Shown here: piece by piece, positions 7,697-58,344 of the stretch
Layout of the letters: each line of letters opens with the position of its first letter
Position numbering within the stretch: the stretch's first letter is position 1
Source: a virus
Length of the DNA: 64,000 nt
Virus record (IMG/VR): IMGVR_UViG_3300020027_000006
Location: 1 to 64,000 of that record
Reading direction: 5' to 3' (one strand)
Position numbers and translations under genes: made by a program
Notes under the pieces: model-generated
Seen by the model: the letters and a program-made list of their open reading frames with translations, nothing else
Databases searched by the model: none
Told to the model about the DNA's origin: nothing

Positions 7697-7746
7697 AAAT
7701 AAAGTATAGCAAACAAATTAAATTTTGTCAAGATAAAACTTCCAGT

Positions 7747-19384: not shown

Positions 19385-19432
19385 TTGACAAAAGATTACT
19401 TATATGATATACTATTTGTGGAAGGGTGCGGG
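19385..19432 (+). promoter_or_regulatory. antisense promoter unit 2
   Basis: TTGACA-17-TATACT + ATTTGTGGAAGGGTGCGGG. Confidence 0.8.
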
Positions 19433-24992: not shown

Positions 24993-25039
24993 ACTTAATA
25001 GTACCAAGTAATTATTACTTTGTCAAGAAATAATAAAAG

Positions 25040-25444
25040 CTACTCAATTCCGCAAATATAAAAAATATAATTTTTATACTCCTCATTAAGTTTAGTCTCA
25101 TGAATCCATTGACGGGCATTAGGAAAATTATAGTCATAGTTTCGGGTATAACCATTAGTTTTTATAATTCCCCAACTATAATTCCCTTTAATAGTTCGAG
25201 TCTTACAATTAACTTCCATGTTTATGTATTTTGGATGAACCATTGATTTATTAAATACAGCGGCCCAAAAAGCATAATGTTTTTCATCAACACGTCTTAT
25301 ACTGGAGCGTTGAATCATCCAAACTGTGACCTCAGAATTTATTCTACTAAAGAGTACATCATAATCTTTAGCATTAGACGACTGACCAAAAGATGCAATA
25401 TTTGCACTCACTACCAAAACAATTAACATTAAAATATGTTTCAT
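25040..25444 (-). CDS. secreted protein, possibly surface-adhesin-E-like fold
   Basis: Signal peptide MKHILMLIVLVVSANIASFG; W..RSSIRR...W...MEVNCKTR pattern. Confidence 0.55.
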   Translation of the reverse strand: MKHILMLIVLVVSANIASFGQSSNAKDYDVLFSRINSEVTVWMIQRSSIRRVDEKHYAFWAAVFNKSMVHPKYINMEVNCKTRTIKGNYSWGIIKTNGYTRNYDYNFPNARQWIHETKLNEEYKNYIFYICGIE

Positions 25445-26666: not shown

Positions 26667-26855
26667 TAACAACTCTAAAAAATCGTGAGGATAGAAAAGT
26701 GCCTCAAAAAATTCGTTCAAAGAAACGTCGCCGTGCTGCTGCTAAGGTTGCTCGTAACTCTCGTAAAACTAATAAGTAAGTAGAATAAACATATCCAATC
26801 ATTTAATAGTTACTAATTTCAATAAAAAAATGAATGAGTTCAATACCTTTATTCT

Positions 26856-29875: not shown

Positions 29876-30433
29876 TTAATCCTTTCCTTCGTAATTATCT
29901 TTCAAGTCTCTCATTCGTTTTCCGAAATACCCTGCTGAAAAATTCAAAGGCAAATCATAAGGTATGTTTACACCAAATCGGTTAGTAGCATCACGGTCAC
30001 CTTTACTTTTAATCAGTTTGTGCCGTTCCGACATAGCTTGCTGTATTCTGTTGTTCGTTTCGTTTGCCATAAATAGATATTAGCAAACGAAAATGATTTT
30101 GTCAAGAGAATAATCCCGGATTCCGGGATTTTATTTAGAGAACAAAAGCGGAGCACTTTCTAAAAGTTTCATAACTGCGTTGTATTCGTCCATTATGCCC
30201 TCATTCGGTTCGATGTCCCAACCTCTGTCGTAATTAACTATTACGCCGTCAAACCAGCTGTTAGTTGTATTACTTCTACAAAGTTCTCTAATACTAAGTT
30301 TGGAAACTCTTCCGTTGTTTATTCCAAACATCGAACCTGTATCAAACAGTTTAGCCTCAAACTCATAATTCTTGCCGACTAATCCGTTGACCCAATTATC
30401 TTGTAAATCAAATTTTGTGAATTGTGCTTCCAT
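29876..30433 (-). CDS. two hypothetical ORFs (29876-30070, 30131-30433)
   Basis: Own promoters; GRVSKLSI..NYDRGWD pattern in the second. Confidence 0.65.
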
Positions 30434-34501: not shown

Positions 34502-35092
34502 TTAAGCCTCTCTCCAAGTCTTATTAGATTTAATTGAGTAAACTATATCTAATGTAAGTTCGGAACAAGATATTTTTTCTAATATCTGCGGAGCAGTAAA
34601 TTTATTTTTTAATAAGTGTTTAACTTGATATGCTATTTCTTTATTGATTCTTTGATTAGGCTCATGTCCTTTTGGAAAAGGGTTGAAAGCTTTCATTCCT
34701 TTATAAAACCTACGCCCTTTACACTTATTGCCAGTTGCTTTGCGTTCTCGGTCTTTAGCCCTCATATCATCAGAATTGATTTTATGGTCACCTTCAAAAA
34801 GATGTTTAGGATTAACACAATTTCTAATATCACAAGTATGGCATAAAAATAGTTTTTTGTCAATAAATAAATTATTAGCAATTATAAAAGAAACATGATG
34901 TACTCTTTTAGTTTTATCATTTATTGAAACTTGTCCGTATTCTTTTTCATTAGGGTTTACTTTGTTTTTCTTTGTCGCCCCAGTCCACAACCAACAGCCT
35001 TTAATGTTAGCATCTTTAATTACTTTATCAAAAAAATTATTTAATTGTTTTTCCGTAATAAACTTCATTTGCGATTTTGAATGTTTCAACAT
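34502..35092 (-). CDS. HNH homing endonuclease
   Basis: CWLWTGA...YG...RVHHVSF...LCHTCDIRNCVNPKHL. Confidence 0.85.
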   Translation of the reverse strand: MLKHSKSQMKFITEKQLNNFFDKVIKDANIKGCWLWTGATKKNKVNPNEKEYGQVSINDKTKRVHHVSFIIANNLFIDKKLFLCHTCDIRNCVNPKHLFEGDHKINSDDMRAKDRERKATGNKCKGRRFYKGMKAFNPFPKGHEPNQRINKEIAYQVKHLLKNKFTAPQILEKISCSELTLDIVYSIKSNKTWREA

Positions 35093-35909
35093 GTAAACTT
35101 ACTGTATCTTTTTCATTATAACCTCCTGCCATAACAAATACAATAGGGATATTCATTTGTTTCGTAAATTCAAATACAGAACGGTCACGTTTTTGTAGTT
35201 CTAATTTAGTTAAAATTCCACTTCCTAAGCTATCATGAATGTATGCATCCATACCCGCTTGATAAATAATTAAATCAGGTTTAACATCAAGAATAGTTAC
35301 AAAAGATTCAGCCAACGCTGCCTCGTAATCTATCCAACTTCTTACTTTTCTACTCCAACTATGTATTGTTTCCTCGTCTGAAGAAAGTGCCAAACCAAAA
35401 ATACTGAAATTATAAAGGTTATCAAGTTGTCTTGTAAAATCTCTTGTTCCATCACCAAAGTGAATGTCCACATCGAGTACAAAAACACGTTTATCAGGCA
35501 GTTCTTGTGCGACTAAAGCTAATCCGTTAAATGTGCAATAAGCCGACCCCCTGTCATAGGATGAATGATGAAAACCCGCAGCTATACAAGAACTAATTCC
35601 AGTGCTTAAAGCCTGTTCAGCAGCCGGAACCATAGATTCATTAATGGCTAGAACCCCGTCTCTAATTTCTTTTGTCCAGTTCCATCCATTTGAACTTGCT
35701 AAATGTCCTTCTCCTTTAACAAAAGCTTCTACATATTTCGGACTATGCAATTTGGTTAATTTATCAATTATATGTTCATCTGATTTTGATTCTATGATTT
35801 CAGATAGACCGATTTCTTGAACTTCTTTCGAGATTAAAGAAAGTTTTCGCATCGAAAGTGTGGGAGTATCTGCAAAAAATTTAGATTTATAGTATGTAGG
35901 TATCTTCAT
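35037..35909 (-). CDS. Zn-dependent histone deacetylase family protein (HDAC/AcuC/AphA)
   Basis: LHSPKYV, GFHH, CTFNG, DVDIHFGDG, YQAGMD, GGY. Confidence 0.9.
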   Translation of the reverse strand: MKIPTYYKSKFFADTPTLSMRKLSLISKEVQEIGLSEIIESKSDEHIIDKLTKLHSPKYVEAFVKGEGHLASSNGWNWTKEIRDGVLAINESMVPAAEQALSTGISSCIAAGFHHSSYDRGSAYCTFNGLALVAQELPDKRVFVLDVDIHFGDGTRDFTRQLDNLYNFSIFGLALSSDEETIHSWSRKVRSWIDYEAALAESFVTILDVKPDLIIYQAGMDAYIHDSLGSGILTKLELQKRDRSVFEFTKQMNIPIVFVMAGGYNEKDTVSLHVETFKIANEVYYGKTIK

Positions 35910-36114
35910 AATTTATTGTGTAGGCAAATTCCAATTTAAGTATATCAAAGTTTTATTATTTTGTCAACAAATAAATTTAAGAGGTGTACTCCCTCCCAGT
36001 GAGCAGGGAAAAAAGCAAGCCCGTCATCCTCTCTGCTCCAGAGAAAAATTTAGAAGAGAAGTAAAAAGACCCTGCTTGTGCAAGGTCTCTTTCTTTTTCT
36101 AAGGTTTTAAGTGT

Positions 36115-36330
36115 AATAGTTACTAATTTCAATGAAAAACAATGAAATTAACTTTAAACTTTTAACAGTTTTGGGCTAACTAAAAAGCCCTCTACTTCGT
36201 TCGGAAAAACCTCTCCAAGTTTCTTTTTTAGAATATTCAATGCAGCGTTATAGTCAGCATTAACTGAATGAATGTAATACAAGCCATTGCTTTGTTGTGC
36301 TTACTTGCTAATCTGCAGAATTAGTTTTCA
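36115..36330 (-). mobile_element. internally deleted IS200/IS605 remnant: tnpB 3' end plus right end (omega-RNA region)
   Basis: 36270-36154 reads HSVNADYNAALNILKKKLGEVFPNEVEGFLVSPKLLKV*, the TnpB RuvC-III motif; 138 bp identical to 58040-58177. Confidence 0.8.
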
Positions 36331-36456
36331 GTCAATTGGTTTAAGTTAACGCATAATGGTTTCCTCCCGACTTTAAGTCTTTACCAATCTCGAATACTTA
36401 CCTTCGACAATTAAAGTGTAGCAAACTAGAACTTGTTTGTCAATACAAAAAATATT

Positions 36457-38085: not shown

Positions 38086-38143
38086 GAGAATAATCCCGGA
38101 TTCCGGGATTTATTTTTCGTAGCTTTTCGGAAAATTTGCCCAC

Positions 38144-57878: not shown

Positions 57879-58300
57879 ATGAAGAAAATAATCAAATCTG
57901 TGATTAGACGGTTTTTAGTTCCAGATAGAGTTCCACATATGTTAGTATCATTGTTAATGGTTCTTATGTCTGTAGGTATTGGGATAGTATTTAACTCTAT
58001 ACTATTAGGAATATTTTTTTGGCCTTTATTCGGTTTAGGTATAACGCTGCATTGAATATTCTAAAAAAGAAACTTGGAGAGGTTTTTCCGAACGAAGTAG
58101 AGGGCTTTTTAGTTAGCCCAAAACTGTTAAAAGTTTAAAGTTAATTTCATTGTTTTTCATTGAAATTAGTAACTATTGTTGCATATTTTATTATAGGAGT
58201 TTATACTGCATTAGCTGTAAGTAAAGTGACAGGATTTATCTGTGCAGTAATTATAAACAAGCTTTTAGCAATTAGAGCATGGGCTTATGCTCAAGATTAA
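57879..58300 (+). pseudogene. membrane (holin-like?) gene interrupted by a tnpB/omega-RNA remnant
   Basis: MKKIIKSV...WPLFGLG and IVAYFIIG...AWAYAQD* join in frame (95 aa) if 134 nt are removed. Confidence 0.7.
58040..58177 (+). mobile_element. tnpB 3'/right-end remnant, copy 2
   Basis: Exact reverse complement of 36115-36252. Confidence 0.85.
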
Positions 58301-58344
58301 TTTTAAGGTATCCCGGAATCCGGGATTAAGGGAGAACGATTATT

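Follow-up and report, generated by a model that had tools for sequence, protein, structure and literature searches.

Cas12 and its guide descend from TnpB and its omega-RNA, and an RNA part that lives apart from its protein bears on the origin of trans-acting guides and of CRISPR-like arrangements. Among the elements that carry tnpB, those of the IS607 family have no palindromic ends and produce no target duplication; the target of their transposase TnpA and the TAM of their TnpB read TGGG, their scaffold ends in UCGG, and the two share the core dinucleotide and differ just upstream of it (10.1101/2023.11.20.567912). PATEs are protein-less derivatives of IS200/IS605 elements, and they often encode omega-RNAs that are used with TnpB in trans (PMC10055086). 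In phages, nuclease-dead relatives of TnpB, named TldR, are encoded together with a guide RNA (PMC10705468; PMC13418256).

Here we describe a phage with two identical, complete guide modules of IS607 type and no nuclease, one module lying under an early promoter and the other splitting a gene. We read them as non-autonomous, structurally intact modules that depend on factors supplied in trans, and give this reading a probability of about 0.5.

Layout of the locus and its coding remnant

The window, that is, the whole stretch of DNA analysed, is the first 64 kb of a 75,244-bp IMG/VR viral contig that is 56% complete and has a GC content of 35%. It derives from a soil phage, and an independent soil run (X3) carries copies 1 and 2 of the module unchanged. 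In a first-pass annotation, the locus had been read as an orphan guide-RNA cassette left by a tnpB element; all features listed there are present, at most 1–2 nt from where they had been placed. On the minus strand, a sigma-70-type early promoter with a TG-extended −10 element (TTGACA-17-(TG)TACACT, 36415–36443) precedes what had been described as an aborted translation start, namely a Shine–Dalgarno sequence, GGGAGG, with the two-codon ORF ATG CGT TAA (36346–36368; ORF 36354–36346). This start showed no significant likeness to the tnpB starts or left ends of the relatives described below. It is followed by an imperfect 17-nt palindrome, CTAATTCTGCAGATTAG (36308–36324), by a coding remnant (36154–36300) and by the 134-nt unit that forms the element right end (36116–36249), beyond which come a flank of ~22–23 nt in the guide position, TACACTTAAAACCTTAGAAAAAG (36093–36115), and an intrinsic terminator with a 13-bp stem, a T run and then ACTTCTCT (36063–36092). 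In blastn, the 801-bp locus had no match among 50,697 phage records.

The coding remnant comprises 48 stop-free codons (36300–36157, minus strand) that read ...HSVNADYNAALNILKKKLGEVFPNEVEGFLVSPKLLKV before a stop codon and include the RuvC-III motif NADYNAALNI. A tnpB 3′ end had been proposed at this place, correctly, though with 38 codons rather than the 48 of the frame, 42 of which form an ORF. Four independent TnpB, Cas12f or transposase profiles matched the remnant, each weakly and all on their last C-terminal positions: Pfam PF07282 (Cas12f1-like TNB, positions 48–60 of 60, E 0.25), NCBIfam Cas12f2 (502–520 of 524, E 0.0013), NCBIfam guided_TnpB (374–389 of 389, E 0.057) and the PHROG 506 transposase (349–369 of 403, E 0.015). 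An end-to-end alignment was obtained with the final 42 residues of TnpB from Staphylococcus phage Quidividi (MH321490, E 1e-4). The remnant aligned as well with the TnpB of a relative, L090, where the translated similarity read through as far as the element end (E 2.4e-4 in a comparison with the whole contig). Judged by these alignments, the coding remnant is the 3′ end of a tnpB gene, with the TnpB C-terminus (RuvC-III D-x-N-A-A-x-N-I plus tail) in frame directly upstream of the element end.

The rest of the gene was sought widely. Protein sets of 5.8 billion and 1.8 billion yielded no close full-length relative of the 48-residue remnant: word-indexed searches found none, HMMER matches among the 1.8 billion representatives were repeat proteins only and proved spurious on reading, and a peptide-pattern scan of viral contigs yielded no confirmed relative. 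Scans of genomes and metagenomes returned only distant TnpBs of DPANN archaea, with the RuvC-III stretch in common. Within the 75-kb contig we found no tnpB, no resolvase or tnpA and no further TnpB fragment. The first-pass annotation had reported that the window holds no intact tnpB and had suggested searching the rest of the phage and the host for one; the absence extends to the entire 75,244-bp contig.

Relatives assign the module to the IS607 family

An exact 19-mer of the element end had 0 matches in viral contigs, and an exact 16-mer, TGAAATTAGTAACTAT, occurred in 75 viral contig stretches, with extended likeness in a handful. All five records recovered by the 16-mer that were tested (G001–G005) contain a full-length tnpB. 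At nine loci, a homologous module directly follows tnpB; the distance from stop codon to element end is 31–43 nt where measurable, the module ends in ...AACTAT| (AACTGT in one), and the flanks beyond are unrelated. The corresponding distance in the window is 38 nt. A serine recombinase (Resolvase) gene lies directly upstream of tnpB in three relatives (L090, L091 and L093), accompanied by MerR in L090. The L090 TnpB shares 40–47% identity with TnpBs from phages of the Staphylococcus, Bacteroides, Lak and Helicobacter groups, and the matching Helicobacter TnpBs are annotated beside a resolvase. Because a serine-recombinase TnpA lies upstream in three relatives, these comparisons identify the family as IS607 and not IS200/IS605.

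Since IS607 elements have no palindromic ends, the rationale for a palindromic left end falls away. The palindrome at 36308–36324 had been offered as a possible IS left end; it occurs once in the genome and is unlike the left ends of the relatives. Together with it, two other left-end candidates, AAGTAT at 36399–36394 and a stretch resembling a TnpB N-terminus ('LNQL'), were rejected, each having no statistical support, and a comparison with the relatives' left regions detected no left-end-like sequence in the locus or in the 134-nt unit. Without tnpB, tnpA or a left end, the locus is not a complete or autonomous IS607 element. We are highly confident, instead, that it is the right-end/omega-RNA module of an IS607-type tnpB element. 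As the first-pass annotation noted, an omega-RNA overlaps the 3′ end of tnpB and takes its guide from the right flank, and in position, the one respect compared here, the locus has this arrangement.

One of the related viral records (G001, 164,754 bp) contains three tnpB copies (L092, L096 and L098), all with an in-frame TGA in RuvC-III. The motif there reads EIDAD-TGA-NASINI, the relatives have Y, V or L at the TGA position, and TGA is probably decoded as an amino acid in this phage (stop-codon recoding).

Element end and further copies

The element ends in ...AGTAACTAT| at 36116, and the flanks part exactly after ...ACTAT. The end had been recognized in the first-pass annotation, with the exact base missed: the boundary falls one base before the close of its ...ACTATT. 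This position was fixed by an identical copy 2, a partial copy 3, a diverged copy 4 and the nine relatives. In copy 1, ACTAT stands both immediately before the 134-nt unit (36254–36250) and at its end (36120–36116).

A BLAST search of the locus against its own genome showed that 36252–36115 on the minus strand is 100% identical over 138 bp to 58040–58177 on the plus strand. This copy 2 amounts to a net insert of 134 nt (58043–58176) located directly 3′ of AGGTAT (58037–58042) with no loss of target bases, and its left junction is exact to the base, at a motif common to copy 3. It splits a small hydrophobic membrane ORF (57879–58300, plus strand), and removal of the 134 nt restores ...FGLG-IVAYF... 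in frame. The identity of copies 1 and 2 may merely reflect recency. Copy 3 (26806–26842, minus strand) is a decayed 37-nt right-end fragment that terminates in the same final sequence, directly 3′ of AGGTAT (26848–26843); it is visibly decaying, with a broken hairpin.

The fourth right end is found on contigs of 266–318 nt from soil runs X1–X3. It is identical to 36155–36116 at 37 of 40 positions, its flanks are absent from the 75-kb contig, and a 30-mer of its flank had 0 matches in viral contigs. Upstream of it, ..AGCTTATAGTCTCTGAGG.. resembles the scaffold box of relatives L094 and L097. Copy 4 is probably part of a longer related element, which may lie in the portion of the phage not covered by the contig or belong to a different genome from these samples.

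Read outward, the element end spells TTG AAA TTA GTA ACT ATT (MKLVTI), at window positions 58160–58300 (plus strand) and 36132–35977 (minus strand), and in copy 2 this reading shares its frame with the C-terminal half of the interrupted membrane ORF. As no Shine–Dalgarno sequence is seen, it is probably without meaning.

The RNA module is kept in copies 1 and 2

Alignments with the relatives (A1 and A2) revealed a shared architecture: a hairpin with UAUAG in its loop, then an A-rich linker leading to a terminal hairpin, with AGUAACUAU as the tail. In copy 1, the first hairpin has a GGGCU/AGCCC stem (36173–36190) whose loop, UAGUU(A), is complementary to the 3′ tail UAACUA and forms a pseudoknot candidate; the terminal hairpin, UAAUUUCA...UGAAAUUA (36122–36152), is followed by the tail GUAACUAU, which ends at 36116. 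Pairing is possible between the box AUAGUU and the terminal AACUAU, and an equivalent pairing is kept in the relatives: L091 alters both sides (ACAGUU:AACUGU), amounting to one compensatory change, and in the window the register is shifted by one (UAGUUA:UAACUA). Across the 18 pairs compared, pairing holds in 88% of cells, versus 22–49% when the partners are slid. Compensatory change occurs at only two pairs and does not exceed that in shuffles, and the RNA structure is consistent with the alignment, short of being proven by it.

A covariance model (R1) built from A2 scored copy 1 at 63 bits (E 1e-8), copy 2 at 62 bits and copy 3 at 24 bits as a partial match (E 0.1). Across the 75 kb it found no other credible match; hits at 25131–25199 and 25031–25121 lie inside a coding region and were judged to be chance. 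Copies 1 and 2 retain all conserved scaffold features. When R1 was applied to five related records, every match adjoined an intact tnpB, which makes the orphan state peculiar to this phage and gives no sign elsewhere of selection keeping orphan modules. As a whole, the unit has a better fold than its shuffles (z −3.9), mainly on account of the terminator, and the scaffold fold by itself is unexceptional (z −2.1 with the flank, −0.9 for a longer piece). Rfam contained nothing relevant to the window region or to the relatives, and no group I intron was detected in either. The right-end/omega-RNA family described here, present in several viral contigs, is uncurated and has no Rfam match.

Promoter and terminator belong to phage-wide families

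The pattern TTGACA-N12/13-nTGnTAnAnT matches 25 times in the 75 kb, compared with 0.06 in shuffles, and the matches have T-rich upstream regions. Their density in the early region is about one per 1.4 kb. These near-identical extended −10 promoters include those at window positions 7731, 19340, 19209, 24483, 35967 and 37560, of which 19340 and 19209 are in tandem with identical cores. On the plus strand, promoters at 19385, 22045, 29517, 31845, 33025 and 37584 oppose the genes, each followed by atttgtgGA(A/G)GGGTGCGGG. The terminator had been reported in the first-pass annotation and is a strong one, 23 nt past the element end; its trailer, TTTTTACTTCTCT, is common to other terminators of the phage. 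Four terminators of the minus-strand early region (36092–36063, 33246–33219, 32008–31979 and 24675–24648) have the trailer TTTT(T)ACTTCTCT after the T run.

The promoter and terminator of copy 1 are therefore modules native to the phage, and their layout is no evidence of design. With one promoter per ~1.4 kb, chance alone would often place a scar of the early region between a promoter and a terminator, and the cassette look may be incidental. The placement of the unit between a promoter and a terminator thus stands, and the idea of a purpose-built cassette does not, as both signals belong to phage-wide families. Copy 1 is nonetheless likely to be transcribed from the early promoter.

Similarity between the unit flanks and the leader downstream of the 19340 promoter (19310–19210) was considered as paralogy and rejected (z about 1.7, not significant). 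A perfect 19-nt palindrome, AATCCCGGAATCCGGGATT, or its core is present at no fewer than three intergenic sites (30112–30130, 38092–38110 and ~58311–58329), and could represent a repeated bidirectional hairpin. Downstream of the locus, the gene at 35037–35909 (minus strand) encodes a histone-deacetylase-family protein (Pfam E 1.6e-32), and the protein encoded after it (34502–35092, minus strand) has a weak match to a His-Me/HNH-type zinc loop. Queries with this deacetylase neighbour and with a 704-aa tail-fibre-like protein identified no related phage.

Guide flank, target motif and partner

The search for guide matches that the first-pass annotation envisaged gave no candidate target. Within the window, the 20-nt flank matched only itself when up to 3 mismatches were allowed, and nine exact 16-mer matches in viral contigs were attributed to chance, being without extension or a common upstream motif. 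No TldR or TnpB gene is encoded nearby or anywhere in the 75-kb contig. A cognate TnpB is therefore absent from the 75 kb of a contig that is 56% complete, and a related right end, copy 4, occurs in the same soil samples.

The hexamer AGGTAT, found immediately 5′ of copies 2 and 3, has a frequency of ~0.29 per kb per strand. In G001, three tnpB-only copies have (A/T)TAT within a few bases of the start of homology. Comparison of these junctions suggests a candidate target or TAM of the form ..GTAT (not C at −4), set against an element end in ..CTAT, in line with the TGGG/UCGG rule published for IS607.

Discussion

Under the reading that we prefer, an IS607-family tnpB element would once have stood inside an early transcription unit of the phage. 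The last 48 codons of tnpB and a complete right end survived, and the nuclease gene, any transposase gene and the left end would have been lost. What remains corresponds to the part that, in intact relatives, encodes the omega-RNA scaffold, and the modules are most likely non-autonomous hitchhikers. An IS607-type TnpB could be supplied in trans by the host, by a co-infecting phage or by the 44% of the phage genome that lies outside the contig. It could then bind the RNA, which would be trimmed to the scaffold and a guide drawn from the flank, and together they would cleave "empty" alleles, consisting of a DTAT motif plus the flank, in relatives without the insert: an empty allele would read GGTAT followed directly by TGTTGCAT..., and the flank targets of the units would be GGTAT + TACACTTAAAACCTTAG and GGTAT + TGTTGCATATTTTATT. 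Cutting of this kind would be the ordinary retention or homing role of TnpB and not a new phage weapon. We hold the use of the unit in trans as a guide RNA to be plausible, if less likely than not.

For the left-end-less copy 2, the simplest account, and in our analysis the best, is a TnpA event. A full element would have inserted at AGGTAT; the TnpA serine recombinase would then have paired its left junction with an internal ...GACTAT| (site ...GACTAT|AACGC) serving as a false right end, and all but the last 134 nt would have been excised, leaving these 134 nt against the original left flank. An origin of copy 2 by an RNA copy is unlikely, since copy 2 lacks the guide part of copy 1.

The strongest rival, which we credit with a substantial minority share of the probability, is that all copies are inert scars: several full IS607-type elements entered, deletions trimmed them, and the RNA is transcribed with the early region and does nothing. 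It accords with the failure to find a nuclease, a transposase or a target, with a promoter and terminator that are generic phage modules, with the decay of copy 3 to a 24-bit partial match, and with the lack of orphan modules in the relatives. Inert DNA does not readily explain the full set of conserved scaffold features in copies 1 and 2 or their identity over 138 bp, nor why the base-exact left junction of copy 2 coincides with the motif of copy 3, which points to a junction made by an enzyme and not by random deletion. The related right end in the same samples also speaks against it.

At the other extreme, the phage may harbour a selfish element that consists of a guide RNA only. Such an element would be protein-less, take its TnpB, of IS607 type, and its TnpA from a co-resident element, use the guide derived from its flank to cut alleles of the form GGTAT + flank in co-infecting relatives and so home or persist, with copy 1 expressed early under a phage promoter. 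We regard this as improbable; if true, it would be smaller than any other RNA-guided homing element on record and the first known from a virus.

The 134-nt unit could be a mobile mini-element that has a right end only and moves through TnpA in trans or by another route, copy 2 being a fresh insertion. The ACTAT brackets of copy 1, the position of copy 2 just 3′ of AGGTAT without loss of target bases and the occurrence of copy 3 at the same motif would all fit, yet there is only one full extra copy, the unit contains no left-end-like sequence, known IS607 transposition uses both ends (10.1101/2023.11.20.567912), and the RNA-copy route suffers from the missing guide part of copy 1; we consider this explanation distinctly unlikely. 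Still less likely is a domesticated guide-RNA cassette that programs a TnpB or TldR of host or phage against a host gene or a rival phage. A tidy layout with an early promoter, an intact scaffold, a ~22-nt flank and a strong terminator invites the idea, and phage-encoded, TnpB-derived regulators with guides of their own are known (PMC10705468; PMC13418256). It is opposed by the 20-nt flank, which has no other match in the window, by the nine 16-mer matches in viral contigs, which neither extend nor share an upstream motif, by the absence of a TldR or TnpB gene from the contig, and by a promoter and terminator that are not special to the unit. That the unit is a small RNA or regulatory repeat of the phage resembling TnpB by chance, as the weakness of the single profile matches (E 0.0013–0.25) might suggest, is scarcely credible given that all matches fall on the C-terminal ends of TnpB-type models and that the same DNA module follows an intact tnpB at nine loci.

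If the modules are used in trans, guide-only parasites of TnpB exist in viruses, and GGTAT becomes a candidate TAM. If they are inert, the locus still records how IS607 elements decay once they are in a phage, and it hints that an internal site can serve TnpA as a false right end.

Among known systems, the module resembles IS607 tnpB elements such as the IS607/IStron elements of C. botulinum (10.1101/2023.11.20.567912) and the tnpB of phage Quidividi (MH321490). In both cases, the sequence for the TnpB C-terminus leads into the right end, the scaffold stops at the element boundary and the flank supplies the guide; target and element end, here the candidate ..GTAT and ..CTAT, agree in their last bases and differ upstream, as do TGGG and UCGG, and a serine-recombinase TnpA is present, here in the relatives only. 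The phage differs in that its module lacks a nuclease gene, a transposase gene and a left end, and in that two identical modules stand alone. Moreover, the candidate motif is A/T-rich rather than G-rich, and there is no group I intron, unlike in the IStron. Simple solo IS ends and deletion scars likewise combine a truncated gene with one element end, and copy 3 is decaying as they do, whereas copies 1 and 2 are identical and structurally complete, and copies 2 and 3 have their left junctions at the same hexamer. TldR systems (PMC10705468; PMC13418256) similarly keep a TnpB-type guide RNA in a phage genome, whereas their guides adjoin the tldR gene and match a host promoter; the phage studied here has neither that gene nor such a match. 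PATEs offer a further parallel, as protein-less derivatives that keep the guide-RNA part and need TnpB from elsewhere; unlike the phage module, which is of IS607 type and has no recognizable left end, they retain the subterminal hairpins of an IS200/IS605 element on both sides and depend on a Y1 TnpA for their movement (PMC10055086). Protein-less carriers of omega-RNA were thus already known (PMC10055086), and what sets the present modules apart from IS605 PATEs is that they are of IS607 type, have no left end and reside in a phage.
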